Part shown: positions 4,801-63,562 of the stretch, piece after piece
Numbering within the stretch: position 1 is the first letter of the stretch
Layout of the letters: each line of letters begins with the position of its first letter
Virus record (IMG/VR): IMGVR_UViG_3300017435_000029
DNA from: a virus
DNA: 64,000 bases
Strand: one strand, 5' to 3'
Translations under genes and position numbers: made by a program
Notes under the pieces: model-generated
Seen by the model: the letters and a program-made list of their open reading frames with translations, nothing else
Database searches by the model: none
What the model was told of the DNA's origin: nothing

Positions 4801-4816
4801 CCCGTTAAATTAACCC
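4801..4816 (+). promoter_or_regulatory. conserved element CCCGTTAAATTAACCC, copy 1 (candidate phage-RNAP promoter or operator)
   Basis: Exact 16-mer, AT-rich core in a GC-rich intergenic region; one of 5 identical copies. Confidence 0.6.
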
Positions 4817-4846
4817 AGGAACTGGGCAGGTTGACGGGGCGACGAG

Positions 4847-4862
4847 CCCGTTAAATTAACCC
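4847..4862 (+). promoter_or_regulatory. conserved element CCCGTTAAATTAACCC, copy 2, 52 nt upstream of the ATG at 4915
   Basis: Forms a tandem pair with copy 1, 46 bp apart, immediately upstream of a gene with a strong RBS. Confidence 0.6.
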
Positions 4863-4914
4863 TGAAAGGGTCGGCGAGACCGGCCCCGACATCCAGAGAA
4901 AGAGTGTAAGACAC

Positions 4915-5544
4915 ATGACCGACATCACCGATATCAAGCAGGTCTACATCATCGAGGGCCGTCAGTTCGAGACGAAGGCCGAGGCGCAGGACTTCCTCCG
5001 TCGCCCCAAGAAGGTCGACGCGTTCAAGACGTTCATCGCGGCCGGCGACAACCAGGACAAGATCATCGACTGGCTGCTCGACAACCAGGAGAGCGTCGAG
5101 AGCGCGTTCGAGGCGGGCGTCATCAAGCGCGTGTCGAAGTCCGAGACCAAGCAGCTCGAGGTCGCGTTCGCCGAGATCGCGGCGGCGGCAGCCGAGGGTC
5201 GCGCGATCGACACCAAGAAGGCGCGCATCGTCCTCGACAACATCGAGACCGCTCGCGACTCGTTCCGCTGGCCGACCGTCAAGCGCATGAACGACGAGGA
5301 GAAGGCCGCCGAGGCGCTGCGTCAGCTGACCGAGGTCGCCGAGGGCAACGAGCGCCTGGCTCAGTTCGTCGTCGAGAACAAGGACCGCGTCCTCGAGTCG
5401 TACGCGGCCGGCAAGCCGAAGCGCGAGGTCTCGCCGCAGGCCGCGGCTGGCCTGCAGGAGTACCGCGAGCGCATGGCCCGCGAGAAAGCGGAGCGCGAGG
5501 CGAAGGCCGCCGAGGGCGCTGACGCGACCACCGAGGCGGAGTAA
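4915..5544 (+). CDS. hypothetical protein (209 aa), probably highly expressed
   Basis: Strong RBS AGAGAAAGAG; two promoter-like elements upstream; terminator-like structure downstream. Confidence 0.7.
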   Translation: MTDITDIKQVYIIEGRQFETKAEAQDFLRRPKKVDAFKTFIAAGDNQDKIIDWLLDNQESVESAFEAGVIKRVSKSETKQLEVAFAEIAAAAAEGRAIDTKKARIVLDNIETARDSFRWPTVKRMNDEEKAAEALRQLTEVAEGNERLAQFVVENKDRVLESYAAGKPKREVSPQAAAGLQEYRERMAREKAEREAKAAEGADATTEAE

Positions 5545-5562
5545 CCCGCACACGTCCTAGGC

Positions 5563-6609: not shown

Positions 6610-6899
6610 GCGAGTACACCGCGCTGCTGGCCAAGATGAGCGAGCAGGACCGGGAGATCGTCCAGGCGAAGATGGCGCAGGTCCAGCTGACGGCCGCGAG
6701 GGACACCAAGAACCGCATGTACGTGGTGGCCGAGATGCGGGCCGGACCCATGCGCCTCGAGGCCGTGGACTTCGAGGGCAAGGTGACCTTCACCATGTGC
6801 TACGACAACGACGTGATGGCTCACATGGGCGAGGAGGCTGCGAGGCTGTTCAGCACCTTCGTCACCGACACCATGGAGCGACGCCCCAAGGAGGGCTGA
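6606..6899 (+). CDS. hypothetical protein (VSEYTALLAKMSEQ..., 97 aa)
   Basis: GTG 6606 overlaps the upstream stop; the earlier part of ORF 6339..6899 is RAP-rich artefact. Confidence 0.55.
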   Translation: MSEYTALLAKMSEQDREIVQAKMAQVQLTAARDTKNRMYVVAEMRAGPMRLEAVDFEGKVTFTMCYDNDVMAHMGEEAARLFSTFVTDTMERRPKEG

Positions 6900-7648
6900 T
6901 GAACATATTCTACGTGGACCTGGACCCCGCGAAGGCGGCCCAGGCCCTCCACAACCGACACATCATCAAGATGATCAGCGAGAGCTGCCAGCTGCTGTCC
7001 GTCTGGGCTAGCCGCTGGACCCCGATGGACCGGGGCAAGCTCTCGTTCATGACCGACGAACAGCACGCCGCCATGATGGCCGAGGTCGAGGCGGCGGACT
7101 TCGACCCCGAGGTGACCGACGCGATGGCGGAGGTGCCGCCCGACGTGCCCTGGACCGGCATCTCCCACCAGAACCACCCCGCCGCCCTGTGGCTCAGCGA
7201 GGGCCTCGGCAACGTGAGGTGGCTGGTGGAGCACCTCAAGGCTATGGTCGACGAGTACGACTTCCGCTACCCCGGCAACAAGGACAAGTTCGAGCGCGCG
7301 AGGGTCATCGTGCCCGCGATGCGCTACTGGCTGGGCAAGTTCGTGACGCTCAACCACACCTGCCCGAAGGCCTGCTTCCCGGACAAGTACAAGCACGAGC
7401 CCCTGGACCGCGAGAACGTGATGCAGGGCTACCGGGACTACTACCTGTCGGAGAAGATCGCCGGCAACGAGTGGGGCAAGCGGGAGCCGCCGAGCTGGGT
7501 GATCCGGTACAAGGAACTCTACAAGCCTCCTCCCCCGATCGACGTGGGCGACATCTTCGCCGTGCCGTCGAAGCCCAAGGTCGAGCACGCTCTGCCGGTC
7601 GCGGAGCCGACTCGGCAGAAGGTCAGCGCGAAGGACATCGTGTTCTAA
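6899..7648 (+). CDS. hypothetical protein (249 aa; MNIFYVDLDPAKAAQALHNRHIIKMISESCQLLS...)
   Basis: ATG 6899 overlaps the upstream stop. The N-terminus is loosely reminiscent of pyrimidine-dimer glycosylase family N-termini (L-D-Q-H-L-x-A-E), but the match is weak. Confidence 0.55.
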   Translation: MNIFYVDLDPAKAAQALHNRHIIKMISESCQLLSVWASRWTPMDRGKLSFMTDEQHAAMMAEVEAADFDPEVTDAMAEVPPDVPWTGISHQNHPAALWLSEGLGNVRWLVEHLKAMVDEYDFRYPGNKDKFERARVIVPAMRYWLGKFVTLNHTCPKACFPDKYKHEPLDRENVMQGYRDYYLSEKIAGNEWGKREPPSWVIRYKELYKPPPPIDVGDIFAVPSKPKVEHALPVAEPTRQKVSAKDIVF

Positions 7649-8505: not shown

Positions 8506-8831
8506 GCGACCCCGCCGCTGAGCGGCTGCGGTGGGCCGAGGCGCTGGAGAGCGGCAAGTTCGAGCAGGCCGAGGGCGCGCTGAAAGACAGTGCGGGACAC
8601 TTCTGCTGCCTAGGCGTGGCGTGCGAGCTCTACGACCCGAGCAAGTGGAAGGTCGACGAAGAGCTTTACGTCGAATACGAGGGCATGCTCGGCATACCGC
8701 CCCCTCCCGTGCTGGAACGCTTCGGCATAACGGAAGACCAAGCCAACTACTTGGCGACCTTGAACGACAGCCAGGGCAAGACCTTCAAGGAGATTGCCCA
8801 GGTCATTCGTGAAGGCATCCCTTCGTGCTGA
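8502..8831 (+). CDS. conserved small Cys-containing protein, paralog 1 of 3 (W-EALESG-F...FCCLGV-CE...LATLND--G-TF--IA)
   Basis: GTGA overlap with the upstream stop; shares a motif pattern with 9636..9956 and 17187..17525. Confidence 0.6.
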   Translation: MSDPAAERLRWAEALESGKFEQAEGALKDSAGHFCCLGVACELYDPSKWKVDEELYVEYEGMLGIPPPPVLERFGITEDQANYLATLNDSQGKTFKEIAQVIREGIPSC

Positions 8832-9094
8832 CCGCGCTGGAGGGTGAGCCCACGGACGGCGTGGTCCTGTTCTGGGCAGGTTGGGCACCGCCCTCGACCG
8901 ACATGCGAGACATGATGCACGCGCTGCCGGACGAGTTCCGCCACGTGGACGTCGAGGCTAACCCCGAGGCCGCGCTCAAGAACGACGTCAGGGGGCTGCC
9001 GACCGTCGTGCTCTACAGGCGCGGCGTCGACATGTCGCGCAAGATCGGCTACATCAACGAGCAGGCCCTCCGCGCGTGGATCGCGGAGAACTGA
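8825..9094 (+). CDS. thioredoxin-fold protein lacking the CxxC active site (WAGWAPPS instead of WCGPC)
   Basis: VVLFWAGWAPPS...DVEANPEAALKNDVRGLPTVVLYRRG aligns to Trx VLVDFWAEWCGPC...[22 protein letters not shown]. Confidence 0.7.
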   Translation: MLTALEGEPTDGVVLFWAGWAPPSTDMRDMMHALPDEFRHVDVEANPEAALKNDVRGLPTVVLYRRGVDMSRKIGYINEQALRAWIAEN

Positions 9095-9198
9095 GCATCT
9101 TATATGATATCCACAGAGGAGGTCTCATGGGACCCTGACTACGTCCGACCAAGACCGGACAAGACTACACCACTCTGAACTCAAGTGAGGAATGAAAT

Positions 9199-9585: not shown

Positions 9586-9605
9586 GCACGACGTTAAACT
9601 GCTCC
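9586..9605 (+). promoter_or_regulatory. variant conserved element GCACGACGTTAAACTGCTCC (type B, copy 2)
   Basis: Near-identical to 5563-5581; preceded by the GGGCGC/GCGCCC hairpin that spans the stop codon. Confidence 0.5.
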
Positions 9606-9635
9606 TTCCCCCTAAATTTTTAGCGGAGTACGAGT

Positions 9636-12944: not shown

Positions 12945-13700
12945 ATGCACTACTACGATCTGCCCTGCATGCGCGCGGGTAAGTCAACGTTCAACGACAC
13001 CATGGTGCTCGCTCACCTCCTGCGCGGCTCCACCGCCTGCACCTACGACGCGGGCTACACCACCATCACCCACAACGAGGAAGACAGCATGAACGACATC
13101 CAAATCCGCCGCGGCGACATCCTGACCTACCGCAACATGCACCCCGAGGGCAAGCCGGGGCAGGAGACCGTCAGCTCGTACTACGACGGCGTCTACCTCG
13201 CGATCGACGACAAGGTCGGCGACTTCGTGCCCGCCATCCGGTACACCGACCGGATCGGCGACTACTACTCGGCCAGCACCGAGCGGCGCACGATCGACCT
13301 GACGAAGGCCGTCGTCGAGAACCACGGGCGCGACGGCGACCGGGTCAAGCGCATGATCGACGCGCTGCGCCGCTTCTCGGAGACGCCGCCCAACCCGGTC
13401 AGCGGGAAGCGCGGCTACGTCGAATCCGTCTACACCGGGGCCGCGCACCTCGCCGACGAACTCGAGCTGCTCTTCGGCGACATGGACGACGAGCCGGACA
13501 CCCCAGAGGACGCGCGCCTCGACGAGCTGGCGACCGGGCTCGTGGTCGGCGTGGAGGTCTTCTCGGACGACGCCCCAGCTATCCAGGAGATCAGCGCCGA
13601 GCAGGCGATCGGCCTCTTCTACCTCCTGCTCAAGGACTGCGGCATGTCCCCGCAGGAGGCCGTGGCCGCGATCGAGGTCCTCGACGAGGCCCTGGGGTGA
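12945..13700 (+). CDS. hypothetical protein (start uncertain; ATG 13089 has the better RBS GAGGAAG)
   Basis: Long ORF with a protein-like translation. Confidence 0.5.
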   Translation: MHYYDLPCMRAGKSTFNDTMVLAHLLRGSTACTYDAGYTTITHNEEDSMNDIQIRRGDILTYRNMHPEGKPGQETVSSYYDGVYLAIDDKVGDFVPAIRYTDRIGDYYSASTERRTIDLTKAVVENHGRDGDRVKRMIDALRRFSETPPNPVSGKRGYVESVYTGAAHLADELELLFGDMDDEPDTPEDARLDELATGLVVGVEVFSDDAPAIQEISAEQAIGLFYLLLKDCGMSPQEAVAAIEVLDEALG

Positions 13701-16435: not shown

Positions 16436-16707
16436 TGGACTTCAAGATCGACCACAGGGGCAACCCGCGGCTTCACAGGCTGTACGTACGCTACGCCATC
16501 GAGCATTTGAAGCCGATGATGGAGTGCGTCGACGACCTGGAAGGCCAGAGCCGGGTCAACGCTCTCGTCACTGCGGGTCTGCTCCGGCAGCGCATGCGGG
16601 AGCTCGTCCTCGAGGACAGCGCGTACTTCGAGGCCGGCGCTCTCCTGTTCGCGGGGGCAGACACTACCTCCTACTTCGTTGATGAGAAAGGAAAACCGAG
16701 TGGTTAA
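16435..16707 (+). CDS. hypothetical protein (90 aa)
   Basis: TGATG overlap with the upstream gene. Confidence 0.5.
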   Translation: MDFKIDHRGNPRLHRLYVRYAIEHLKPMMECVDDLEGQSRVNALVTAGLLRQRMRELVLEDSAYFEAGALLFAGADTTSYFVDEKGKPSG

Positions 16708-24272: not shown

Positions 24273-24296
24273 TTTTTTCCGACGGCCTTGGCGCGA

Positions 24297-24314
24297 CCCC
24301 GTTAAATTAACCCC
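24297..24314 (+). promoter_or_regulatory. conserved element CCCCGTTAAATTAACCCC, copy 3, upstream of the terminase module
   Basis: Exact core 16-mer. It is followed by a leader that is conserved with the one after copy 5. Confidence 0.6.
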
Positions 24315-53221: not shown

Positions 53222-56200
53222 TGGGTCTCGAAGTAATCATCATCGCGGCAGCGGCGTTCGTCATCTCGGCGGCGTCCGCAGCCTACCAGGTCGTGCAGGC
53301 CAAGAAGATGAAGGCGCAGGCGCAGGCCGCGGCGGACGCCCGCAAGGGCTTCGAGCTGGTGGTCGAGGGCGAGCCCGAGTACCTGCCCATCGTCTACGGT
53401 CGCGCCATGATCGGCGGCACCCGCACGTACCACAACACGCGCAACGACTTCGCTTTCGATGCGCCGAACTCGGACAAGAGCTTCCTGACGGGCTCCCCGG
53501 CCTACGCCGGGTACAACTACACCTACTCCATCTGGGACGCGAACCTGTACGCTCAGCTGGGGATGCTCGGCACCGTATCGCAGCAGGGGTCCGGCTACAT
53601 GTCCGGCCCGCTGTCCGGCGGCAAGAACGACTTCCTCGCGTACCAGCAGGCCCTCTGCGTGGGGCCGATCAACGCCGTCAGGGACGTGATCATCGACGGC
53701 GCGCGGTTCATCGACGACCCCACCCTGGGGACGTACGGCGAGATCCAGGCCACCACGGGCAAGAAGAAGACGTCCGGGGTCAAGGCCGCGCTGCGCCTGG
53801 ACTACCACTACAACGGCGGGGCGGACTCCGTCATGGCCGCCAACTTCCCCGAGCGCAAGGACTCCAAGTTCACTCGGGCGGCCTACCTGTCGGCCTTCTT
53901 CCGCATCGACCGGGACGACCCCCAGTTCCAGGGCGTCCCCGGCGTGCAGAGCTACATCGAGGGCCGCAAGGTCCGCTGGGTGGCGAACGGCGTCCTGTCG
54001 ACCACCAAGTCGTACGAGGAGGACCCGACCAAGTACCGCTACACGACGAGCCCGTCGCTCTGCCTGCTCGACTACCTGCTCGACAGGGAGAACGGGAAGG
54101 GCTGTGACGTCGGCGACTTGGACCTGTTCAGCTTCGAGGCGGCCGACGCGCTCTGCCGCAAGGTGGTGCAGTCGGGCGTGGCCGTCGGGGGCAAGTTCTG
54201 GAAGCCGACCGACGGGATCGGCGCGACGGACACCCGCGACCTGCCGCTCTACGAGTGCAACATCGTCGTGGACACCAGCAAGCCCGTCCGCGAGAACGTG
54301 GAGGCCATCCTCTCCACGATGGGCGACGCGCGGCTGGTCTGGTCGGGCGGCAAGTACCGTCTGAGCATGCAGTACCCGGAGACGAACGACAAGATCGTTC
54401 TGGCCGGCGTGATCACCGACGACGACCTCGTGATGGGCGAGGACGTCAGCATCGCGTGGCCGACCGCCAGCGACCGCTACAACCACTGCAAGATCCGCTT
54501 CCACAACGAGTACGAGGGGTTCAAGGAGGACAGCGTCTCCTGGCCGCCCAAGTACAACAACAGCTACGCCCGAGGCATCGGTGCCCAGAGCTACCCGCAG
54601 GGCGTGGGCGGCTGGGACGAGCTCAAGGAGGGCGGCCGCCTGCTGAGCGCCTACGGCGTCTGGAACGGGGCCGGCGACAGCACCAGCATGACCTGGAAGC
54701 TGCGCGTGAACCCGGACCAAGCCGGCACCTACGCCCTCGCGGCCACCGGCGACAACACCATCAGCGTCAGCATCAAGGACGACCAGAGCGGGGCCAGCGT
54801 GCTGTCCCTCAGCAACAACAACTGGAAGGTCCCCGCTAAGCGGTCGGTGACGCTCGGCTCCTCGGCGGGCGTCCGGGTCTACACCATCACCGTCAGCGGC
54901 ACGAACGACGGCAACGCGGCCAAGGCGGTGGCGGTCAAGATCGACAACGCCAACGTGGTGCTCTGGACGACCCGCAGCACGTCCTACGACAGCTACGCCC
55001 AGGTCACCGAGAGCGACGCGGTCTACAAGGAGATGCTGGCCGAGGACAACGGGCTGGAGCTCGAGGCCGACATCTTCTCGGACGGCATCACCGACACCCA
55101 GCACGCGCTGGCAAAGGCGGAGGAGCTCGTCCGGTCGAGCCGCACGGCGGCCGGGTACAAGTTCAAGTACGTGGTCACCGACCGCTTCTACGAGCCCGGC
55201 GACTTCGTTCAGCTGAAGAGCCTGACCCTGAACGTCGGCTACGCACAGCCCCTGTACCTCCGTGTCGAGGGCGTCAAGGTGGTCGGCGACGACCGCTGCG
55301 AGGTCGAGGCGTCTCGCTTCGACTACACCCAGCTCGCCTGGAACGTCAAGGACGACGTCAACATCAGCGCCCCGCCGGTGTACAACATCGTCCTGCCGCA
55401 GCCCTACGAGATCAGGTACCTGGCCCCGAACAAGGACAACACGGACAGCTCGGGACGGCTGGAGTGCGACCCCGTCGCGTTCCCGGAGTTCTCGGCCTAC
55501 GTGTGGTTCATGCACAGGGCCGGGGTGGACGGCACGGACGGGGACGGCAAGCCGATCCTCACCGAGATCGCCCGCACCACCACGCCCAGCTACGACCTGC
55601 CGAGCGTCAACGCGGCGAGCGCGTTCTTCGGCGTCAAGGCGCTGTCGTCCAACGGTCGCATGTCTCGGATCACGACGACGGACCCCCGCGCCGCGATCAC
55701 GCTGACCCACAACTGGCTCCGCGCCGTCACCATCGACGCGCCCGTGACCACCTTCCTGAAGCAGGACGGCGGCGGCTTCGCCCCGGTCACCCTCTCCCTC
55801 GTGGCGAGGGCCCAGGGCTTCGTCAGCCCCACGTTCGAGTGGTACCTCGGCTCGACCCGCGTGGGCACGGGCGGGACGCTCGTGGTGGCCGGCTTCAACG
55901 AGAGCTCGCGCGTCTACTCCCTGCTGGCCAAGGAGGCGTCCGACCCGACCGGCGTGACCGCCGACGCGGACGTGACCATCCTGTCCTACTCAGCGGCCGA
56001 GGCGGGCTCCACCCGCGGCTCTCCCAACGACACCTACGTCGCCGGCCAGAAGGCCCAGGACCTCGTCAAGAGCGCCAAGGACAGCAAGGACGCCATCGGG
56101 GACGCCAACAGCGGCCTCACCAAGGCCCTGAACGACACCGCCACTGCCATCAGCAGCGCCGACTCGGCCATCAACAGGTCGATCACCGCCGCAAAGAAGG

Positions 56201-59200
56201 TGGCCGACGACGCGGCCCTGGCGATCAGCAGCTCGACCTCCACCCTGAACGTCAGCATAGCGAACGCCAAGAAGGCGGGCGACGACGCCAGCGCGAAGGT
56301 CGACACCACGGCGAGCGCGCTGCAGGTCAACATCAACGCCGCTAAGAAGGCGGGCGACGACGCGGCGGCCGGGGTGACGGCGGAGGTCAACAACCGGCTG
56401 GCCGATACGCAGTCCATACGCACGACCCTTATCGGGAGCATCCAGAGCGGCAAGACCGTCTCTAGCCTGCTGACCGACGAGGCCGTCACTCGAGCGGCCG
56501 ACGACAGCGCCATGAGCGCCCGCATCACGGTCAACGAGACCAACTACGGCTGGACCGGCTTCACGCCCAACCCGAAGTTCGGCCAGTACGCGACGACCAG
56601 CGGTCGCCCCGCCTACTGGAACAACGAGGGCGACCCCGGAGCCGCCCGCCTGACGCGCGTCCTGGGGGAGGGCGGCGTGGGCTACGCGCTGCGCGCCAGC
56701 ACGACGGCGGGCGTGGGGACCTACATGAGCGCGGCTAGCCCGATGGGTGTCGTGCGCCAGAGCCAGTGGATCGTCCTCGAGATGGACGTGAAGCTGATCT
56801 CCGGCACGCTGCAGGGGCTGGGGATCTTCGCCCGCACCCGGACCAGCGGCGGCGCCAACTCCAACGAGTACTCCCTGAAGTGCGGATCCGACCCGGACAC
56901 CAGCGGCGGCGCTCCTGGGGACGGGGCGGCGGGCAAGACCTACCGATTCCGCAAGCTGATGCAGATCACCAACGCCGACGCGGACCAGCTGGTCACCTTC
57001 CTGGGCCTCAAGATGGGCCAGACCAGCAGCCCGAGCAACAACACCGGCGTGGACAGCGTCTACGAGCTGTACCTGGTCAACGTGCGCCCCGCCACGGACC
57101 CCGAGATCAAGGCGCAGAAGGCCGACGACACCCTCAACACGCCCCAGTCCGGCGTGGTGGCTCGGCTCCAGACGGTCCAGACGACCCTGGGCGACAGCAC
57201 CTCGGGTCTCGTCAAGTCGTTCAACGACCTCAACGTCCAGATCAACCCGACCGGCGGTCCCAGCGTTACGGCGCGCCTGAGCACCGCCGAGCTCGCCATC
57301 GGCGACAGCACCAAGGGGCTAGTGAAGAAGACCAACGACCTCAGCACGAGCGTCACTAAGTCCGGCCAGCAGATCATGCCGGAGAACATGCTCAACCCCG
57401 GCAACTGGACGAGCCAGGAGCTCGTTCTCCAGCCGACGGTGTTCGACCTGACGGAGTCGCGCTTCTACCTCAACGGCGAGGGCGTGATGACCTTCACCAC
57501 CAACGCGGGCGAGAGCATCAAGCTGGCACCGACCTGGTTCTTCAAGCCGCAGAAGGACCGTACCTACCGCGTCACGTGGAAGGTCCGTCGCTGGAACGCG
57601 GCGACGAGCGGGACGTCCCTCGTGGATTTCGGCTTCGTCTGGAAGGGCACCAACGGCGGTGACAACTACGCCACCAAGTCGGTAGACGCCTCCACGCTCA
57701 AGGGCAGCGCGACGGACTACGACGAGCTGTCCTACGAGATGAAGGGCATCGACGGTATGGGCTGGGCTCGGCCCCGCGTCCACCTGAACAACGGCGGCGG
57801 CGCGGGGGCGCGCTTCATGGTGGCCGGGTGCAGCGTCCAAGACGTGACGGAGATCCTGGACACTCGCGCCAGCGTCAAGGACATCTCGACGGCCATCAGC
57901 ACCCCCGGCACCGGCTACGCGGCGAAGATCAGCGCGCTGGAGACCTCGGTAGGCAACAACACCACGGGCAAGAGCCTGACCGCGCGGCTGGAGGCTACGG
58001 AGAGCGCTCTCAACGACGGCACCACCGGCGTAGTGGCGCGCACGAGCAAGCTCGAGGTGCGGCCTATCCCGGCGGGCAACATGCTGCCCAACACCAGCTG
58101 GCCGAACAAGAAGACCACCGGTTGGAACGTTCCGACGGGGCTCAACATCGGGGTGAACAACCCTACCGACGAGTGGCATCCCAAGGACGAGAACGTCTTC
58201 TCCCTGTACTCGCAGGGGGACGCCGGCGTCACCGGCTACGCGGCGGCGCAGATCAGCGAGCGGTTGCCCGTGGACGACACCCGCTGGTACCAGTTCTACT
58301 CCTTCAACGCCGCGCACCGCTGCAGGGCCGAGATGCGGATGATCTGGTTCGACGCCTCGGGTGCGCAGATCACCAGCCAGACCAACTGGACGGGCGGGGC
58401 CACCGTGGCCACCGGCGGCGTGGATCCGAAGAACTACACTCAGATGGGCTTCAAGTCGGTCAAGCCGCCTGCAGGCGCGGTGCAGGTCGAGGTGGGGCTC
58501 GGCAAGTGGGGGACGGTCTCGGGCGAGACTAACAGCTGGATGTTCATCTGGCGCCCCTACTTCGGTGAGACCTACGAGGGCAACACCGCCTGGAACCCCT
58601 ACGTGCCCGGCAACGGCACCACGGTCTTGGACGACACGTCCTCACGCCTCGCTACGGCCGAGACGGTCATCGGCACGGCCAGCTCGGGGCTCGTCAAGAA
58701 GACCGAGGACCTGAACGTCCAGATCAACAAGGCGGGCGACGGCATCAACGCAAAGTTGACCGACACCCGGCTGGTGGTGGGCGACGCCAACAGCGGCCTA
58801 GTCCAGAAGGTCACCTCGCTGGACAGCCAGCTCAACACCCAGGGCACCGGCGTGGCGGCCAAGCTCACGGACCTGACCACCACGGTCACAGATCCGACTA
58901 ACGGTCTCACCAGCCGGATGAGCAGGGCTGAGACGCGTTACGGGCAGCTGCCCGTTCGCTTTCTGGTCAGGTCGGCGGGCTACGCCGGAACGGATGCTCC
59001 CTGGGGCAACACGAGCACGGGCCTGTACGCTGCTGACGGGACGGCTCTGTTTGCCGTGGGTCGCAGCTACGGTGCGGTCGTGTTCGGCAGCGGCAGCAAC
59101 GCCATCTCGTTTTCGAAGGTGTACGACGTCTACGGGAGCACCGCTGCGGCCACCGAGCTGGCCAACATGCTGAACGGCGTGACGAAGGGCCAGACGATCG

Positions 59201-62200
59201 TCATCATGACGAACGACGAGCCTGTCAACAACCACTTGCAGGCCGACCTGCTCGCCGCCATGGAGGGCATCGGCGCTGGACAGGGCTACCGCAACATCAA
59301 GAACCGGGGCGCGTACGTGCTCATCGGTCGTGCGGGCCTGGGCAAGGGCAGGGGCCTGGAGCTGGTCGGCGGCCTCGTCGACAGCGACCCCAAGGCCTTC
59401 GTGGAGACCTACTTCGACCTGTACAAGGGCATCCCCGACCTGTCGGGCAACGGCGACGCCGTCGGCACCAACGCGCGCCTGACCACGACGGAGAGCACCC
59501 TCTCCGACCCGAGCACGGGCGTGGTGAAGCGCCTCGCGGACCTCTACACGGACGTCAACACGGGCTCCACCAGCGTCAAGGGTCGCCTCAGCACCGCCGA
59601 GACGGCCATCAGCACCAACGACACCGCCATCACGAAGCGGGCGTCGGTGCTGGAGAGCGCTGCGCTGCTGGACGGCGCTGCCCTGAACGCGAACCCACGC
59701 TTCGGCGTCTGGCCCACCGACCAGGAGCTGCCGCTGGGCTACAACTGGTGGAACAAGCCCTCGGGCGCCTCTGCTACCCGCATCACGCAGGACGCCTTCG
59801 GCACCGGCTCGAAGAACGTGCGCATCGTCGCGCCCGCCTCCGAGTGCGGCTTGGGTATGGTTAACGTGCCGTTCATTGTCAAGGGCTGGTACGTCATCGA
59901 CGTCGCGGCGGCCATCCGCAGCGGCGACTGGAGGGGTGCCGGCGTGACGGCCGGGGGCCAGGCGAGCATCGACTTTGCCTCTACGCCCGATAACGACGGC
60001 GTGACCACCAGCTCCGCGAGCGTGGTGGACAGGCGGTGGACGCAGCTGGTGTACATCGGCACCGGCGGCAACGTCAACTTCCACTGCATGGCCAATTGGA
60101 CGCCGTTCAACAAGGGGTTGGTGGCTAAGACCGTAGACTTCGTGTCGGCCTCGATCCGCCCCGCCTCCCGCGCGGAGGTGCTGGGTCAGCAGGCCAGCGA
60201 GTCGCTGCTCGGAGACAACGGCGTGATCGCGCGCCTCGGCAGCACCGAGACGGCCATCGGCAACAAGGACAGCGGTCTCGTGAAGAAGACCGAGGACCTG
60301 TCGGTGCTGCTCAACGCCGCCAACACTGGTGTCGTGGCCCGGCTCGGCAGCGTGGTAACCGCGGTGGGTGACGCCAACAGCGGCCTCACGCAGCGCGTGA
60401 ACACTGCGGATACCATCTTCAAGAAGTCGGCGCAGAGCATCCTGCCCACCAGCATCGGCAACCCGAGCCAGTGGACCAACGATGAGGGCAACATCAACGC
60501 CACCGGCTTCGTGATGAACGACGGCCACTTCATCATGATGGACGAGAACTTCCCGGCGTTCGTGTCGGCGGCGGGCGAGTCCATCCTGATCTCGGCGATG
60601 TGGTTCTTCAAGCCGCAGAAGGACCGCACCTACCGCATCGTGTGGAAGGTGCGTCGCCTGGGCAACGTGTCCAGCGGCAACTCGCAGGTTCACGCTGGCT
60701 TCTTCTGGCGGGCGTCCAACAACACCGGCAACTACTCGCAGAGGCAGCTGCAGTCGTCGGAGATCGTGGACAACGCGTGGGACTATACCACGATCGTCCA
60801 CGACATGAGGGCCATCGCCAACATGGCCTGGGCTCGCCCTCGCATCCACCTCAACGTGAACGCGGGCGGTGGCGTGAGGTACGCCGTCGCCGGCTGCGAG
60901 GTCTATGACGTCACCGAGGAGTACGCCTCGAACGGTCGCATCACCAACGTCGAGACGACGCTGGGCGACGACACCAAGGGTCTGGTCAAGCGCACCAACG
61001 ACATGCTGGCCACGTTCAACACCCCGACGACGGGCGTGCTGGCGCGCATCGGCACGGCGGAGACGGCCATCGCCGCCAACGACAGTGCGATCACCCAGAG
61101 GGCGAGCGTGCTGGAGTCGTCGGTGGGCCGGAAGGAGTACCTCAACAGGAACGCGGCCTTCACCGAGCCGGGCTACACGGGCGCGCAGAACAGCCTGCCC
61201 GCGTACTGGGACGTGTGGAGCATGGACGGCGGGGGCTACCGCGGCGGCTGGATCAGCCAGAGCCCCAGCAACTACGGGGCCGTCCGACCGGTCCAGGTGG
61301 ACAGGCAGGGCACCAACTGCGGCCTCCGCAACACCCTGTACGGCCAGTTCCCCAAGGGCTGGTACGTGCTGGAGTGCGAGGTGCGCCTGGAGGACGGCAA
61401 CTCCCTGGGCGCGGGCGTGTACACGGAGTTCAACAACGGCCACACCGGCCGCCTGAACTTCAACACCGACCCCGACACCGACGGCTACACTGGACCGCAC
61501 GGCACGGGCAACTACAGCTTCACCAAGCTGGTGTACAACGGCAACAACACGGGTCAGATCCAGCTCTACATGATGGCTGGCTGGGACGGGTTCGCCGGGT
61601 ACCAGGGCTTCCTGCGCACCATCTGGCAGAAGTGCGGCATCAGGCCGGCGACCACCGCCGAGGTGGAGTCGGGCAAGGTGTCGGGCATCAGCGCCAAGGT
61701 GAGCACGCTGGAGGGCACCGTAGCCGACCAGACCGGCAAGCTGACGGCGTACTTCAGCAAGACGGCCTCCGTGCCGGGGGCGGACGCGACGGTTGAGATC
61801 GTCGCCACCAACGCCTCCGGTCAGCCCACGTCTAACGTGGCGCTCACGGCGACCACCATCTCGCTGAAGAACAAGGCCGACGGCAGGGTGATCCCGGCTC
61901 TCACCGCTGAGGGCGGCAACGTGATCATCGCCAACGACCTGGTGGGCGGTAACGGCCGCATCATCTGGAAGTCGAGCACCCACATGAAGGTGAGCGGGAC
62001 GGGCTTCGGCTCGGCCAACCAGTTCATCGAGTGGTACGGGCCCGTCAAGAACAGCGTCAGCGAGTGCACCGAGGCCCAGGCCGTGTACTACCTGCGCACG
62101 GACGGTCAGGCCTTCTTCAACGGCAGCATCGCCGAGGGCCAGCTCCGCAACCAGAAGACCACCTACGACTACGGCAACAGCTCCGTCGCGGTGGGTCCCT

Positions 62201-62595
62201 TCGTAACCAACGGCAAGACGCGCTACTTCGTGGCGAGCCTGGCCTTCTCGCTCACGGGCACCCGCTGGTCCAACCACGCGGACGGAGGCGCCACCAGGGG
62301 CAACTTCCTGCTGGAGCGTCTGAACAGCGACAACACCTGGACCACGCTAGGCACCGGCTCCCTCGGGAACTACCGCTACGAGAGCGCCAACAACGGCGTC
62401 GCCAACGAGGGCGAGCCGTCTCTCGTGCGCAAGTCCGCTTCCGGGACGATCGAGTTCACCGACACCACCGGCGGCACGAACCCGATCCAGCTGCGCGCGA
62501 GGGTGTACGACTTCAGCGACGGGGGCGTCACCGGCAAGGCCTACCAGGCCGACGTCGTCGTGGAGCAGCTGCAGATCACCACCTACGAGCCCTAG
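53221..62595 (+). CDS. giant central tail fibre / host-specificity protein (about 3124 aa) with internal domain duplications and 30-aa shaft repeats
   Basis: RBS GGGGGAGG sits 7 nt before ATG 53221. Contains repeats T-GD--SGLVKKT-DL-VQIN and a duplicated domain of about 105 aa, WFFKPQKDRTYR...AGC-V-DVTE. Confidence 0.8.
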   Translation: MGLEVIIIAAAAFVISAASAAYQVVQAKKMKAQAQAAADARKGFELVVEGEPEYLPIVYGRAMIGGTRTYHNTRNDFAFDAPNSDKSFLTGSPAYAGYNYTYSIWDANLYAQLGMLGTVSQQGSGYMSGPLSGGKNDFLAYQQALCVGPINAVRDVIIDGARFIDDPTLGTYGEIQATTGKKKTSGVKAALRLDYHYNGGADSVMAANFPERKDSKFTRAAYLSAFFRIDRDDPQFQGVPGVQSYIEGRKVRWVANGVLSTTKSYEEDPTKYRYTTSPSLCLLDYLLDRENGKGCDVGDLDLFSFEAADALCRKVVQSGVAVGGKFWKPTDGIGATDTRDLPLYECNIVVDTSKPVRENVEAILSTMGDARLVWSGGKYRLSMQYPETNDKIVLAGVITDDDLVMGEDVSIAWPTASDRYNHCKIRFHNEYEGFKEDSVSWPPKYNNSYARGIGAQSYPQGVGGWDELKEGGRLLSAYGVWNGAGDSTSMTWKLRVNPDQAGTYALAATGDNTISVSIKDDQSGASVLSLSNNNWKVPAKRSVTLGSSAGVRVYTITVSGTNDGNAAKAVAVKIDNANVVLWTTRSTSYDSYAQVTESDAVYKEMLAEDNGLELEADIFSDGITDTQHALAKAEELVRSSRTAAGYKFKYVVTDRFYEPGDFVQLKSLTLNVGYAQPLYLRVEGVKVVGDDRCEVEASRFDYTQLAWNVKDDVNISAPPVYNIVLPQPYEIRYLAPNKDNTDSSGRLECDPVAFPEFSAYVWFMHRAGVDGTDGDGKPILTEIARTTTPSYDLPSVNAASAFFGVKALSSNGRMSRITTTDPRAAITLTHNWLRAVTIDAPVTTFLKQDGGGFAPVTLSLVARAQGFVSPTFEWYLGSTRVGTGGTLVVAGFNESSRVYSLLAKEASDPTGVTADADVTILSYSAAEAGSTRGSPNDTYVAGQKAQDLVKSAKDSKDAIGDANSGLTKALNDTATAISSADSAINRSITAAKKVADDAALAISSSTSTLNVSIANAKKAGDDASAKVDTTASALQVNINAAKKAGDDAAAGVTAEVNNRLADTQSIRTTLIGSIQSGKTVSSLLTDEAVTRAADDSAMSARITVNETNYGWTGFTPNPKFGQYATTSGRPAYWNNEGDPGAARLTRVLGEGGVGYALRASTTAGVGTYMSAASPMGVVRQSQWIVLEMDVKLISGTLQGLGIFARTRTSGGANSNEYSLKCGSDPDTSGGAPGDGAAGKTYRFRKLMQITNADADQLVTFLGLKMGQTSSPSNNTGVDSVYELYLVNVRPATDPEIKAQKADDTLNTPQSGVVARLQTVQTTLGDSTSGLVKSFNDLNVQINPTGGPSVTARLSTAELAIGDSTKGLVKKTNDLSTSVTKSGQQIMPENMLNPGNWTSQELVLQPTVFDLTESRFYLNGEGVMTFTTNAGESIKLAPTWFFKPQKDRTYRVTWKVRRWNAATSGTSLVDFGFVWKGTNGGDNYATKSVDASTLKGSATDYDELSYEMKGIDGMGWARPRVHLNNGGGAGARFMVAGCSVQDVTEILDTRASVKDISTAISTPGTGYAAKISALETSVGNNTTGKSLTARLEATESALNDGTTGVVARTSKLEVRPIPAGNMLPNTSWPNKKTTGWNVPTGLNIGVNNPTDEWHPKDENVFSLYSQGDAGVTGYAAAQISERLPVDDTRWYQFYSFNAAHRCRAEMRMIWFDASGAQITSQTNWTGGATVATGGVDPKNYTQMGFKSVKPPAGAVQVEVGLGKWGTVSGETNSWMFIWRPYFGETYEGNTAWNPYVPGNGTTVLDDTSSRLATAETVIGTASSGLVKKTEDLNVQINKAGDGINAKLTDTRLVVGDANSGLVQKVTSLDSQLNTQGTGVAAKLTDLTTTVTDPTNGLTSRMSRAETRYGQLPVRFLVRSAGYAGTDAPWGNTSTGLYAADGTALFAVGRSYGAVVFGSGSNAISFSKVYDVYGSTAAATELANMLNGVTKGQTIVIMTNDEPVNNHLQADLLAAMEGIGAGQGYRNIKNRGAYVLIGRAGLGKGRGLELVGGLVDSDPKAFVETYFDLYKGIPDLSGNGDAVGTNARLTTTESTLSDPSTGVVKRLADLYTDVNTGSTSVKGRLSTAETAISTNDTAITKRASVLESAALLDGAALNANPRFGVWPTDQELPLGYNWWNKPSGASATRITQDAFGTGSKNVRIVAPASECGLGMVNVPFIVKGWYVIDVAAAIRSGDWRGAGVTAGGQASIDFASTPDNDGVTTSSASVVDRRWTQLVYIGTGGNVNFHCMANWTPFNKGLVAKTVDFVSASIRPASRAEVLGQQASESLLGDNGVIARLGSTETAIGNKDSGLVKKTEDLSVLLNAANTGVVARLGSVVTAVGDANSGLTQRVNTADTIFKKSAQSILPTSIGNPSQWTNDEGNINATGFVMNDGHFIMMDENFPAFVSAAGESILISAMWFFKPQKDRTYRIVWKVRRLGNVSSGNSQVHAGFFWRASNNTGNYSQRQLQSSEIVDNAWDYTTIVHDMRAIANMAWARPRIHLNVNAGGGVRYAVAGCEVYDVTEEYASNGRITNVETTLGDDTKGLVKRTNDMLATFNTPTTGVLARIGTAETAIAANDSAITQRASVLESSVGRKEYLNRNAAFTEPGYTGAQNSLPAYWDVWSMDGGGYRGGWISQSPSNYGAVRPVQVDRQGTNCGLRNTLYGQFPKGWYVLECEVRLEDGNSLGAGVYTEFNNGHTGRLNFNTDPDTDGYTGPHGTGNYSFTKLVYNGNNTGQIQLYMMAGWDGFAGYQGFLRTIWQKCGIRPATTAEVESGKVSGISAKVSTLEGTVADQTGKLTAYFSKTASVPGADATVEIVATNASGQPTSNVALTATTISLKNKADGRVIPALTAEGGNVIIANDLVGGNGRIIWKSSTHMKVSGTGFGSANQFIEWYGPVKNSVSECTEAQAVYYLRTDGQAFFNGSIAEGQLRNQKTTYDYGNSSVAVGPFVTNGKTRYFVASLAFSLTGTRWSNHADGGATRGNFLLERLNSDNTWTTLGTGSLGNYRYESANNGVANEGEPSLVRKSASGTIEFTDTTGGTNPIQLRARVYDFSDGGVTGKAYQADVVVEQLQITTYEP
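57529..57852 (+). repeat. intragenic duplicated domain, copy 1 (PTWFFKPQKDRTYRVTWKVRRW...AGCSVQDVTE); coordinates approximate
   Basis: About 60% amino-acid identity with copy 2 at 60595-60918. Confidence 0.6.
60595..60918 (+). repeat. intragenic duplicated domain, copy 2 (AMWFFKPQKDRTYRIVWKVRRL...AGCEVYDVTE); coordinates approximate
   Basis: Paralogous to 57529-57852. Confidence 0.6.
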
Positions 62596-62656
62596 GGGGC
62601 CTCTCGGGGGAGGGCAATCCCGCCCTCCCTCCACGATAGACAGAGTGAGACAAGTA

Positions 62657-62938
62657 ATGGCTACCAAGGAAGAGCTCGACAACTTCTACGCCGCGATCCG
62701 GGCCTCCGAGAAGGAGCTCGTCGAGGCGATCGACGCCATCGCCAAGGACGTCACCGGTCGGCTCGACGCGCTGGCGGAGGGCGTGCCCACCAACGGCCAG
62801 GACAGCGCGGCGTGCCAGCTGCTGAACCGGGTGCGCGGCGCTGTTGGCATGGCCTTCGGCTTCGACCTCGAGAACGTGAAGCGCTCGTACGGGGTCGGCG
62901 CGGACGAGGCCGCCGAAGCGCCCGCGACCGAGGCGTGA
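62657..62938 (+). CDS. hypothetical protein (93 aa)
   Basis: ORF downstream of the fibre gene. Confidence 0.45.
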   Translation: MATKEELDNFYAAIRASEKELVEAIDAIAKDVTGRLDALAEGVPTNGQDSAACQLLNRVRGAVGMAFGFDLENVKRSYGVGADEAAEAPATEA

Positions 62939-63519
62939 CCATACGGAGGGCTCGCAGGAGCGACCTGCCGGCCCTCTCGAGGCTGTCGAGGTCGCTCTTC
63001 GAGAAGTACAACGACCCCGACTTCCCCGTGACGGAGGCGTCGTGCGCCGAGGCGTTCGAGACCTTCGCACGCATGCCCTACTTCAGGGTGATGGAGCGCG
63101 GGGACGCGGTGGTGGGGTGGCTGGCGGCGGGCGAGGGGGCTGGCATGTTCCACTCTTCGACCAAGGCGCTGAGCCAGCTGTACTACCACAGCGAGCTGTC
63201 CGGCCTCTCCGCCGCGAGGGCGCTGGTGGAGTTCCACGAGAACCTGTTCCTGTTCGCGGAGTCCAGGGGCTACGAGGTCGTCGTCACGAGCAGCGTGCTG
63301 CCTTCGTCCGAGACGTTCTCAAGGCTCCTGGAGAGGGCGGGGTGGACGCGCGGGGAGCGCCGCCTCACCCGGCGGACCCGCTGGCACCCGCTCGCCAAGG
63401 CAGGGGCGGCTCGGGCGGCTCCCCGGTGCGAGGGTGCCGGGTCGGCGTCGCGCCGCTCTCCGGGGCTCTCTGCTAGGGGCGCGGACCTGCGCACCCGCGA
63501 GGAAGCCGACGCGGGCTGA
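62935..63519 (+). CDS. GNAT-like acetyltransferase (tentative) with a low-complexity C-terminal tail
   Basis: The N-terminus IRRARRSDLPALSRLSRSLFEKY is typical of GNAT proteins; the last ~50 aa are R/A-rich and may not be coding. Confidence 0.4.
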   Translation: MTIRRARRSDLPALSRLSRSLFEKYNDPDFPVTEASCAEAFETFARMPYFRVMERGDAVVGWLAAGEGAGMFHSSTKALSQLYYHSELSGLSAARALVEFHENLFLFAESRGYEVVVTSSVLPSSETFSRLLERAGWTRGERRLTRRTRWHPLAKAGAARAAPRCEGAGSASRRSPGLSARGADLRTREEADAG

Positions 63520-63545
63520 CCGCGTGCGGGGCCGGCTTCGCGCCA

Positions 63546-63562
63546 CCCCGTTAAATTAACCC
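63546..63562 (+). promoter_or_regulatory. conserved element CCCCGTTAAATTAACCC, copy 5, upstream of the holin-like gene
   Basis: Exact core, plus a downstream leader that is conserved with the one after copy 3. Confidence 0.6.

Follow-up and report, generated by a model that had tools for sequence, protein, structure and literature searches.

What is the short sequence CCCGTTAAATTAACCC that recurs at the module boundaries of this viral genome, and which protein reads it? We analysed a stretch of 64,000 nt (the window), whose GC content is 64-69% and whose plausible genes all lie on the + strand. The original prediction had proposed five identical, intergenic + strand elements, each upstream of a functional block, as candidate promoters of a phage RNA polymerase (RNAP), with the operator of a dimeric repressor as a second possibility.

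Copies of the element and their surroundings

An exact-match search of the window recovered five copies of the 16-mer, all on the + strand and all intergenic (between ORFs 4659/4915, 23983/24486, 36955/37089 and 63519/63651), as had been proposed. The chance expectation is 0.06 copies, and five or more occurred in none of 100 shuffles. The starts first given at 4801, 4847 and 63547 are correct; those given at 24299 and 36964 lie one nucleotide further upstream, at 24298 and 36963, and an extra C flanks these two copies (Table 1). A scan for further copies, suggested with the original prediction, gave no more matches in the window at up to three mismatches. The same phage carries a sixth copy (CCGTTAGATTAACCC, one mismatch) some 9.06 kb past the right end of the window, at L174 19409. 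The count of at least six for the whole genome is a lower bound, as it covers 78 kb of known sequence that lie outside the stretch between L174 and L178, where the DNA polymerase and primase genes probably are. The sequence after the CCC is completely different in each of the five window copies: TGAAAGGGT follows copy 2, and also the extra copy outside the window, the C-rich leader GCCGCTCCCCC comes after copy 3, and GCGCCCTCCCC after copy 5.

Table 1 Features of the window and of the adjoining early region. Positions are those of the window unless L174 is given.
Feature	Position	Strand	Description
16-mer copy 1	4801-4816	+	Exact match; first of two tandem copies whose starts are 46 nt apart
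Extended motif gAmC-CCGTTAAATTAACCC-w at copy 1	4799-4817	+	Flank conservation
16-mer copy 2	4847-4862	+	Exact match; a 209-aa gene (4915-5544) has its ATG 53 nt downstream
Copy of D5, the second family-wide promoter-like class and the rival partner for either RNAP, cGCGGAgAAn5-ATCTTATATGAta	9082-9109	+	
Intrinsic-terminator-like hairpin and run of seven T	24254-24279	+	Ends about 20 nt before copy 3
16-mer copy 3	24298-24313	+	Exact match; precedes the operon of packaging and head-accessory genes
ORF opening the packaging operon	24486-24986	+	Downstream of copy 3
TerL	24986-26344	+	Pfam
Portal-like gene	30195-31832	+	Packaging operon downstream of copy 3
MuF-RNAP, 1552 aa	32297-36955	+	MuF head-morphogenesis domain, aa 149-251; T7/mitochondrial-type single-subunit RNAP, aa ~400-1552
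16-mer copy 4	36963-36978	+	8 nt past the MuF-RNAP stop; 110 nt before the scaffold ATG at 37089
Scaffold	37089-37814	+	PHROGs
Major capsid	37837-39021	+	PHROGs
16-mer copy 5	63547-63562	+	Between the tail-fibre block and 63651-63941 with the lysozyme-like gene
Stand-alone T7-type RNAP, 744 aa	L174 16494-18728		Gene start about 6.5 kb beyond the right end of the window

The blocks downstream of the copies are mostly those originally described, namely the terminase, the scaffold and capsid genes, and a lysis block in which ORFs of 96 aa and 78 aa precede a lysozyme-like ORF of 180 aa that starts just past the window end (at about window position 64174). The stem ahead of copy 3 is the only one on the + strand with a clean run of T (seven consecutive) in the regions scanned, where the other three + strand terminator-like matches have none; relatives show the same order of terminator and then 16-mer. 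An Rfam search of the window returned only a tRNA. No sigma-70-like site was found on the + strand of the regions scanned, which were 60 kb of the window and L174 9800-20291 in the early region, and a host promoter of this type (-35 and -10 hexamers spaced by 16-18 nt) was rejected, since no such site lies near any copy.

Conservation across the phage family

As a megablast search with two 8-kb pieces of the window against 50,697 phage records gave no matches, relatives were found through their proteins. The exact 15-mer is present in at least 117 IMG/VR stretches, 84 of which carry homologues of window proteins. Among 122 distinct contexts, an A occupies position -3 in 117 and a C position -1 in 116, which indicates that these contexts are homologous and not chance matches; the positions past the CCC hold no more than 0.58 bit of information. 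The motif is exact in 123 of 137 family contexts, despite genomes of 33-66% GC and RNAPs that are 50-73% identical, which argues for recognition by a conserved phage protein. Those variants that do occur retain AmCCCGTTAAATTA and differ beyond it. A putative lineage-specific variant, CCCGCTAAATTAGGGG in L006/L007, is present once in the sequence examined, and no recurrence of it was found there.

The copies also keep their places. Orientation in related genomes, on which the original prediction had staked its promoter reading, is largely fixed: 135 of the 146 family instances run with the flanking ORFs and only 2 lie inside long ORFs. The next ORF begins at a median of 89 nt, with a shortest gap of 17 nt to a ribosome-binding site, and the upstream stop codon lies at a median of 73 nt (only 2-40 nt for the MuF-RNAP stop). 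A synteny comparison places the 16-mer at the same four gene boundaries across the family: upstream of homologues of the 4915 gene (12 distinct contexts, and gp9 of EBPR siphovirus 1), upstream of homologues of the 24486 gene (16 contexts), between MuF-RNAP and scaffold (about 20 of 40 RNAP-anchored loci and 42 distinct contexts), and at the boundary of copy 5 (5 contexts), where the syntenic copy of EBPR siphovirus 1 precedes the lysozyme gene gp72. Tandem pairs are common, at spacings of 46-156 nt and most often 114, and a comparison of family loci shows the motif to have been passed down together with the polymerase. A near-invariant motif, four syntenic boundaries and a shared orientation thus favour, as originally suggested, a transcription-coupled and orientation-specific element, and the comparative data are most likely best read as a phage-RNAP promoter.

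Two RNA polymerases and a second class of motif

The only RNA polymerase inside the window is MuF-RNAP, a protein with Pfam matches to both of its parts (PF04233, 2.4e-14; PF00940, 2.6e-7), which also matches PHROG RNA polymerase families and has catalytic motifs that are invariant in its family. Because phmmer found nothing among PDB sequences and the family profile reached T7 RNAP only at E=0.035, we compared folds. The AF2 model (pLDDT 73.9) matches T7 RNAP in Foldseek with E=1.4e-18 and a probability of 1.00, and N4 vRNAP is absent from its top 50 matches. Public data contain at least 417 MuF-RNAP proteins, in a siphovirus family that is large and globally distributed, and the protein is presumed to be packaged in the virion. 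The second enzyme, the stand-alone RNAP of 744 aa, aligns with T7 RNAP (PDB, E=3.5e-43) over motifs A, B and C and the specificity-loop region, and has 2732 phage matches. The same genome thus encodes two phage RNAPs with intact catalytic motifs.

Exactly two motif classes are conserved family-wide. The second, which we call the early class, has the consensus GCGGAAAA-N5-6-ATCTTATATGA, and the 78 kb of sequence known from this phage contain six copies of the 16-mer and four of the early class. With its TATAT followed by G/A, the early class resembles the classical T7/SP6 promoters more than the 16-mer does. Around the gene of the 744-aa RNAP, the early class lies before and the next 16-mer after. 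The family repeats this layout: the early class occurs within 3.8 kb upstream of the small RNAP gene in 17 of the 18 loci whose upstream sequence extends over 1 kb or more, and the next 16-mer follows 0.4-2.8 kb downstream of that gene in 14 of 22 loci. In 12 of 14 loci a 16-mer also precedes the early region, in many relatives 60-180 nt ahead of the first early-class motif. About a quarter of the RNAP-anchored loci have no recognisable 16-mer in the sequence examined, and a de novo repeat search in these loci gave a clear alternative in lineage L048 only, where an early-class-like motif (CCTTATATAGAAAG) stands ahead of the late genes; the mapping of class to stage is therefore not fixed.

Comparison with known systems

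The original prediction had pointed to the T3 promoter. Indeed, AATTAACCC equals positions -17 to -9 of the T3 consensus. The T3/T7-group consensus is a 23-bp block from -17 to +6, with (T/C)CACTA(T/A)A at -8 to -1 and a GGG start at +1. Only AATTAACCC matches, and we rejected this register, as the region just past the CCC, which would correspond to -8 to +1, is almost unconserved. Since nothing is conserved downstream of the CCC, the resemblance is coincidental and not one of homology; conservation runs upstream instead, to the A and C of the flank. The likeness to T7, T3 and SP6 is one of organisation: multiple near-identical, short duplex copies (about 17-23 bp), intergenic, co-oriented with the genes and at times tandem, which follow the RNAP gene and precede the replication, structural and lysis modules of a genome that encodes a T7-fold RNAP. 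The consensus is unrelated save for the 9-nt T3 coincidence, without a conserved TATA-GGG block or an AT-rich -17 element and with a GC-rich upstream half, and the phage, which has two T7-fold RNAPs, belongs to the siphoviruses and not to the autographiviruses.

A further comparison is with cyanophage Syn5, whose RNAP of 779 aa uses a 15-nt promoter, ATTGGGCACCCGTAA, followed by G at +1 (PMC3950665). That promoter is likewise short and GC-rich, is read by a small T7-type RNAP similar in length to the 744-aa enzyme, and ends in CCCGTAA right before the start, to be compared with ACCCCGTTAAA here and GCGTTAAA in DSS3_VP1. Compared with the published sequence, the likeness covers 8-9 nt; the 16-mer continues with a conserved TTAACCC, and Syn5 has two copies only.

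For two polymerases acting in turn there is coliphage N4, with vRNAP and then RNAPII. In Thermus phage P23-45 a vRNAP fused to the tape measure is followed by an nvRNAP (PMC10770324). These phages share with ours a polymerase fused to a virion protein and delivered with the DNA (presumably so for MuF-RNAP), a second phage RNAP gene in the early region, and distinct promoter classes per stage, whereas the virion enzyme is here fused to a MuF head protein and has a fold closest to the T7 and mitochondrial RNAPs. The N4 hairpin promoter has a stem of 5-7 bp and a loop of 3 nt, and neither motif class forms one. For the 16-mer a hairpin of this type was rejected: its best fold, an A/T-rich stem of 4 bp, reaches -0.1 kcal/mol and does not surpass those of shuffles, and compensatory variants are lacking.

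Two named relatives, the distant roseophage DSS3_VP1 (Naomviridae; MuF-RNAP 29% and small RNAP 35% identical to those of our phage) and EBPR siphovirus 1 (MuF-RNAP 54% identical), have the same gene order, both RNAPs, and analogous motif sets at analogous places. DSS3_VP1 carries 13 + strand copies of aTAGGGTGCGTTAAAGAGGGG, which shares only CGTTAAA with the 16-mer and is distributed like it, with none over 29.4-45.9 kb, a span that extends from the tail genes over the early region and the RNAP gene; its early region is headed by copies of ATCTATAATGA. RNAPs and motif have both diverged there, and the distribution is the same. Pelagibacter phage Kolga (30% GC) has a T7-type RNAP related to the 744-aa enzyme and a MuF protein without an RNAP domain, and shows no repeated motif of either class. 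In the literature we found no mention of the RNAPs or promoter motif of DSS3_VP1 or EBPR siphovirus 1, nor a description of the 16-mer or of the MuF-RNAP fusion.

Which polymerase reads the element

From comparative genomics we infer promoter function for the 16-mer, its polymerase and its start site. We hold it slightly on the probable side that a promoter of some 19 bp (gAmC-CCGTTAAATTAACCC-w), read by a phage single-subunit RNAP, has the 16-mer as its core; the reader would most likely be the stand-alone 744-aa enzyme, and transcription would probably start at or just past the A of the terminal ACCC. The consensus would then be a new one of a known kind. The original prediction had implicitly taken the phage RNAP domain as the cognate enzyme; the MuF-fused RNAP is real, but the genome layout makes the second RNAP, encoded outside the window, the likelier reader. 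MuF-RNAP would be packaged and ejected with the DNA, and the early region, including the 744-aa RNAP gene, would be transcribed from GCGGAAAA-N5-6-ATCTTATATGA by MuF-RNAP or, less likely, by the host enzyme. Newly made 744-aa RNAP would then fire at the 16-mers ahead of the DNA-metabolism genes, the terminase/portal/MuF-RNAP operon, the scaffold/capsid/tail operon and the lysis genes, and the tandem copies would drive the 4915 product, which this scheme takes to be abundant. With the early class before the 744-aa RNAP gene and the 16-mer driving the MuF-RNAP operon, each polymerase would transcribe the gene of the other. The small RNAP cannot be the sole reader of the early class, because these are the only conserved promoters before its own gene and it would have to bootstrap itself. 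Whether the scheme extends to a circuit independent of host RNAP, in which the ejected MuF-RNAP reads GCGGAAAA-N-ATCTTATATGA and makes the small RNAP, which reads ACCCCGTTAAATTAACCC for everything else including the virion RNAP of the next generation, is more doubtful, and we put this forward as a tentative proposal somewhat short of even likelihood.

The assignment could also be reversed, as the original prediction implied, with the 16-mers, including the early-region copy, read by the virion RNAP (first injected, later newly made) and the early class by the stand-alone RNAP. The MuF-fused enzyme has a complete T7/mitochondrial-like fold and its catalytic motifs are invariant, so that it too could act on duplex promoters; its gene lies within a 16-mer-driven operon, with a 16-mer past its stop in about half of the relatives; and the 16-mer ahead of the early class stands where a virion polymerase would need its entry promoter. 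A T7/SP6-like class of TATA plus G would moreover suit a small T7-type RNAP, and this look counts against our preferred assignment, as do the motif use in L048 and the quarter of loci without a 16-mer. Phage KP34, in which one RNAP reads two unrelated promoter classes (PMC6834552), is a precedent that we also count against it. Reversal would, however, restrict the small RNAP to the promoters ahead of its own gene and leave no source for a first transcript where the 16-mer is not nearby, as in L191 and DSS3_VP1, whose nearest copy is 13 kb upstream and beyond a terminator-like run of T. It would also mean that an injected enzyme turns on the genes for capsid and lysis from the very start, and that a few virion copies bear the bulk of late transcription until new enzyme builds up. 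We therefore regard reversal as unlikely, with perhaps the standing of a minority view, and prefer the 744-aa enzyme as reader of the 16-mer.

Readings without a direct RNAP promoter fare worse. The core GTTAA-A-TTAAC is, as the original prediction had noted, a perfect inverted repeat in the genome of the window, and many small ORFs have no assigned function, so that the 16-mer might be the site of another phage DNA-binding protein: a repressor or activator, a stoperator-like roadblock, or a host-RNAP specificity factor. Cluster A mycobacteriophage stoperators are likewise asymmetric, oriented, intergenic short sites repeated through the genome; they are the lineage-specific repressor sites of temperate phages, whereas the 16-mer is invariant across very different GC contents, and Pfam finds no HTH, repressor, integrase or sigma domain in the window ORFs and ten early-region or flank ORFs. 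The dyad is broken without compensating change in the family variants GTTGAATTAAC, GTTAGATTAAC, GTTACATTAAC, GTTATTTTAAC and GTAAAATTAAC, and the conserved flanks are asymmetric. Together with the co-directional orientation, these broken dyads, in EBPR siphovirus 1 and IMG/VR variants, led us to disfavour the dimeric repressor operator. As no sigma-70-like core promoter adjoins any copy, and the genome has two dedicated RNAPs and exactly two family-wide motif classes, we judge a DNA-binding site of any such kind improbable. Least credible is an action on the elongating polymerase or the RNA, as a pause or termination signal (like T7 class II) or a processing site at operon boundaries. The position at module boundaries and the closeness of upstream stop codons would suit it, while several copies already have a conventional hairpin-plus-T-run terminator upstream, hairpin potential is essentially nil (-0.1 kcal/mol, z = -0.26), tandem copies sit directly before genes that need expression without another conserved promoter after them, and a terminator placed right ahead of scaffold and capsid would work against their expression; we give this reading very little weight.

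Implications

Should this reading be confirmed, the motif would be the promoter of a T7-type RNAP so far uncharacterised, one that is conserved in phages whose hosts differ widely in base composition. The two could serve as an orthogonal RNAP/promoter pair in synthetic biology and in vitro transcription, and the motif as a sequence tag with which to annotate the transcription units of uncultured phage genomes by the hundreds. The family, which includes the Naomviridae roseophages, for whose transcription programme we found no description in the literature, appears to follow an undescribed siphovirus strategy based on two T7-fold RNAPs, one joined to the capsid-internal MuF protein. This strategy would be analogous to those of N4, crAss-like phages and P23-45, built from different parts. 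If the reciprocal circuit holds, it would yield two orthogonal RNAP/promoter pairs, both new, and long-tailed phages would have a new protein-primed route of infection. In template form, the candidate 16-mer promoter is written gACCCCGTTAAATTAACCCT, and the two candidate classes gACCCCGTTAAATTAACCCt and cGCGGAAAAgcgGGTATCTTATATGAta.

Distribution of the 16-mer in the phage genome

A mismatch-tolerant search with the 16-mer CCCGTTAAATTAACCC returned exactly five matches in the window, all of them exact and on the + strand, as the original prediction had it; three of its coordinates were right, while two were each one base too high (24298 and 36963 are the correct positions). The expected count in dinucleotide-preserving shuffles is 0.06, and five copies were reached in 0 of 100 shuffles. 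All five copies are indeed intergenic, in a genome that is as GC-rich as had been claimed (64-69% GC throughout the window) and in which codon-position GC places every plausible gene on the + strand. Their proposed location upstream of functional blocks also largely agrees with the annotation: we find an operon for packaging and head-accessory functions (TerL, a portal-like DUF4055 protein, and MuF-RNAP, a 1552-aa protein in which a MuF head-morphogenesis domain is joined to a Pfam RNA_pol domain), genes for the scaffold and the major capsid protein downstream of the 36963 copy, and, downstream of the 63547 copy, two small ORFs followed by a lysozyme-like ORF whose start, at ~64174, falls just beyond the window end. 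Among the window ORFs, Pfam detected neither a sigma factor nor an HTH regulator, an integrase, or another RNAP.

The window's last gene is also found on contigs that match the window at 100% identity over 10.35 kb and extend 9.9 kb further (contig L174); there, a series of small early-type ORFs is followed by a stand-alone 744-aa RNAP (small RNAP). This protein aligns with T7 RNAP in motifs A, B, and C and in the specificity-loop region, has an N-terminus ~140 aa shorter, and matches 2732 phage records, with DSS3_VP1 gp080 at 35% identity. The phage encodes two single-subunit RNAPs. The suggested scan for further copies yielded a sixth one, CCGTTAGATTAACCC, one gene past the small RNAP and followed by TGAAAGGGT, as at 4847; the left extension (L178, 4.1 kb, with ribonucleotide reductase genes) adds none. 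In all, the known sequence of this phage, 78,030 nt, has six copies, each on the + strand.

Coordinates of the repeated elements and neighboring features. Positions refer to the window unless a contig extending it (L174, L178) or a relative is named.
Feature	Position	Strand	Remark
16-mer, five copies	4801, 4847, 24298, 36963, 63547	+	exact match
Unknown 209-aa gene	starts 4915	+	downstream of 4847 copy
TerL	24986-26344	+	Pfam
Small RNAP	L174 16494-18728		start ~6.5 kb past window's right end; T7 RNAP E=3.5e-43
D5, four copies in this phage	9082-9109; L174 11071-11098, 14958-14985, 15146-15173	+
Third repeat	~9593-9625 (+); L174 12765-12799, 15611-15645, 15662-15696
Variant TCCGTTGAATTAACCC	EBPR siphovirus 1		upstream of gp9 (homologue of 4915 gene)
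Variant ACCGTTACATTAACCC	EBPR siphovirus 1		upstream of terminase region
Variant ACCGTTATTTTAACCC	EBPR siphovirus 1		between RNAP and capsid genes
Variant CCCGTTAAATTACCCC	EBPR siphovirus 1		upstream of lysozyme gene
gatacCCGTTAAATTAagga	L014 1269, L020 8053, L034 11808		inside MuF-RNAP ORF
g(t/g)a..CCTTATATAGAaag	L048 632, 15036, 16690, 19751		upstream of late genes
GC-rich segment	L193 6561-6680, L195 6549-6668		ends in hairpin + T-run terminator, then 16-mer
TGT-loop hairpins	36994-37004, 37041-37051, 37063-37075	+	aggcTGTgcct, gggcTGTgccc, cgagcTGTgctcg
tRNA-Trp (CCA)	40882-40956	+	within head-tail gene block
Giant ORF 1	42237-52037		3266-aa tape-measure protein, SLT lytic transglycosylase domain
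Giant ORF 2	53206-62595		3129-aa tail-fibre-like protein, ILEI domain
Nucleotide-metabolism/DNA-repair-like cluster	6797-7648, 8825-9094, 13697-14113, 16679-17185; L178 688-3481
MuF-RNAP gene	32297-36955	+
Interrupted MuF-RNAP gene	L001 25771-31144

Conservation of the 16-mer in relatives

No deposited phage is related to the window at the nucleotide level. At the protein level, MuF-RNAP matches EBPR siphovirus 1 (54% identity), the Naomviridae roseophages DSS3_VP1 and DSS3_PM1 (29%), and 54 IMG/VR loci, and no fewer than 417 database proteins share its two-domain architecture. Variant 16-mers occur in EBPR siphovirus 1 at the same four boundaries as in the window, and in about half of the IMG/VR loci CCGTTAAATTAACCC, with 0-2 mismatches, is found 2-40 nt past the RNAP stop codon, always on the gene strand, in loci that span 33-66% GC.

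The exact 15-mer is present in at least 117 IMG/VR stretches. Among the matches listed, 122 distinct contexts show A at -3 (117), C at -1 (116), and T or A directly 3' of the terminal CCC (108), with flanks further out unconserved. Genes for homologues of window proteins are present on 84 of the 117 stretches, and on the source contigs of most others. The shared flanks and protein homologues indicate that these matches are homologous rather than due to chance. The next gene, again among the matches listed, is the scaffold gene in 42 distinct contexts, a small-terminase-like gene in 16, and a homologue of the 4915 gene in 12 or of the 63651 gene in 5. The fixed orientation also extends to the relatives, where the motif is co-oriented with the flanking long ORFs in 135 of 146 distinct instances; the other 11 comprise three apparent exceptions in GC-rich genomes with shadow ORFs and eight ties or cases with no long flanking ORF. 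Only two of the 146 lie within a long ORF. The next ORF lies at a median distance of 89 nt, the shortest gap to a ribosome-binding site is 17 nt, and tandem pairs spaced by 46-156 nt are common. Near-variants are rare (14 of 137 contexts), with changes clustered at the central AA and position 2, and none restores the dyad; other variants keep AmCCCGTTAAATTA, followed by aaga, agga, atga, cccc, or, in CCCGCTAAATTAgggg, gggg.

In one AT-rich lineage, a copy that retains the conserved flanks (gatacCCGTTAAATTAagga) lies ~600 codons into the MuF-RNAP ORF, where it may be an internal promoter, and the stretch between RNAP and scaffold genes is without a 16-mer. Some relatives (L001, L033, L036, L052, L053) have an interrupted MuF-RNAP gene: in EBPR siphovirus 1 its two parts, gp47 and gp49, are separated by the HNH endonuclease gp48, and several IMG/VR homologues are 5.7-6.9 kb long instead of 4.6 kb. 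These interruptions hint at homing introns or inteins within the gene.

Nature of the 16-mer

The 16-mer is very probably a phage-RNAP promoter. Given that conservation stops sharply 3' of CCC(T/A), that variants part ways after ...AAATTA, that G-runs take the place of ACCC in the DSS3_VP1 and L006 versions, and that a ribosome-binding site can follow within 17 nt, transcription probably starts at the A of ACCC or within the next few bases, as judged from sequence. Two downstream subclasses call to mind the class II and class III promoters of T7: nnAAGCsGyCCCCC comes after the copies at 24298 and 63547 and, in many tandem pairs, after the first member, and TGAAAGGGT comes after the copy at 4847 and the one beyond the window.

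A dimeric operator, suggested by the inverted repeat, seems unlikely because the symmetry is not kept, the flanks are asymmetric, and the orientation is strict; the last two points agree with the earlier preference for a promoter or other transcription-coupled element. The likeness to the T3 promoter did not hold, since only 9 nt are shared and the family shows no conservation where the T3 register would put its best-conserved part, which makes it a coincidence. An N4-type hairpin promoter is not supported, the 16-mer having no meaningful hairpin potential, nor is a sigma-70 promoter, such sites being absent near every copy and from the + strand across 60 kb. A terminator role is also unlikely, because hairpin-plus-T-run terminators already precede several copies (24254-24279 here, and in relatives) and the genes directly downstream of the copies need to be expressed.

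In 37% GC genomes, a striking ~100-nt GC-rich segment, which may be a structured RNA or a genome-end feature, lies upstream of the 16-mer at the late/early boundary.

Candidate polymerases for the 16-mer

The early region has no 16-mer and carries a second class of intergenic repeat, D5 (aAA-yGCGgAAAa-N-GGT-ATCTTATATGA-(A/T)(A/G)), with three copies upstream of the small RNAP gene, one in the window, and 61 distinct contexts in relatives. Its spacing and key positions are not sigma-70-like, and we regard it as a candidate early promoter for a virion RNAP. D5 occurs within 3.8 kb upstream of the small RNAP gene in 17 of the 18 loci whose upstream sequence covers 1 kb or more, and the next 16-mer lies 0.4-2.8 kb downstream of that gene in 14 of 22 loci. 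Usually another 16-mer lies upstream of these D5 copies, in several genomes just past a terminator and only 60-180 nt before the first D5. DSS3_VP1 mirrors this arrangement: 13 + strand copies of aTAGGGTGCGTTAAAGAGGGG, which has CGTTAAA in common with the 16-mer, cover the replication and structural genes, none occurs in 29.4-45.9 kb (tail, lysis, early genes, RNAP gene), and two of three ATCTATAATGA copies stand at the head of the early region, the equivalent place of D5.

Both polymerases could read duplex promoters, since MuF-RNAP has a T7-type fold and invariant motifs. The AF2 model of its C-terminal 1153 aa (pLDDT 73.9, pTM 0.69) aligns over its whole length to T7 and mitochondrial RNAPs (Foldseek, E about 1e-18, probability 1.00), with N4 vRNAP absent from the top 50 matches, and the family-invariant residues match motifs A, B, and C.

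We lean slightly towards the small RNAP as the reader of the 16-mer. D5 alone precedes its gene, and therefore the reader of D5 has to be present at time zero, which would be the ejected MuF-RNAP or the host enzyme; the only other family-wide class is the 16-mer. With the MuF-RNAP gene itself in a 16-mer operon, the two polymerases would form a coherent reciprocal cascade, and the layout, an RNAP gene and then the first phage promoters as in T7, follows the paradigm of N4 and P23-45 (PMC10770324). The motif, which is short and GC-rich and ends in CCCGTTAAA, further bears some resemblance to the promoter that the small Syn5 RNAP uses, ATTGGGCACCCGTAA with a +1 G after it (PMC3950665). Several observations nevertheless point away from the small RNAP: D5 is closer in appearance to T7/SP6 promoters (TATAT, with G/A next), many relatives have a 16-mer at the head of the early region, the L048 lineage lacks the 16-mer and has CCTTATATAGAAAG before late genes, and one RNAP can read two unrelated promoter classes, as in KP34 (PMC6834552). 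That MuF-RNAP reads the 16-mer is distinctly less likely than that the small RNAP does.

In the L048 lineage, whose MuF-RNAP is 52% identical, one of the four g(t/g)a..CCTTATATAGAaag copies, with an SP6/T7-like TATA-G, lies directly past the MuF-RNAP stop codon.

The motif is absent from the searched literature, in which we also found no description of the MuF-RNAP fusion or of the transcription strategy of DSS3_VP1 or EBPR siphovirus 1. The 16-mer represents a new consensus within a familiar class of elements, the promoters of phage single-subunit RNAPs. The system around it, a siphovirus with two T7-fold RNAPs, one fused to head-internal MuF, seems to be a hitherto undescribed form of the virion-RNAP strategy.

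Additional features

The scaffold-gene leader contains three hairpins with 3-nt TGT loops, the last abutting the ribosome-binding site; only one other + strand TGT-loop hairpin occurs in the window, at 39235. In nearly all relatives, also where this site has no 16-mer, equivalent hairpins with a YGT loop (such as GAGTTGTACTC and GGGCCGTGCCC) lie upstream of the scaffold gene. The TGT-loop hairpins may act as an mRNA stabiliser, processing site, or translational element. Besides the tRNA-Trp gene and two giant structural ORFs of the window, we note that a tRNA-Asn adjoins the MuF-RNAP gene of DSS3_VP1.

The nucleotide-metabolism and DNA-repair-like cluster includes pyrimidine-dimer glycosylase-like, thioredoxin, UDG-superfamily-like, 5'-nucleotidase, and ribonucleotide reductase genes. 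Naomviridae relatives contain dU in place of dT (PMC8323127), and such a modification, if true of this phage, would affect the T-rich promoter core. A third, less conserved intergenic repeat, CC(C/T)ACCTAAT(T/A)T(C/T)TT(A/T)AC, is directly followed by GGAG and a start codon.
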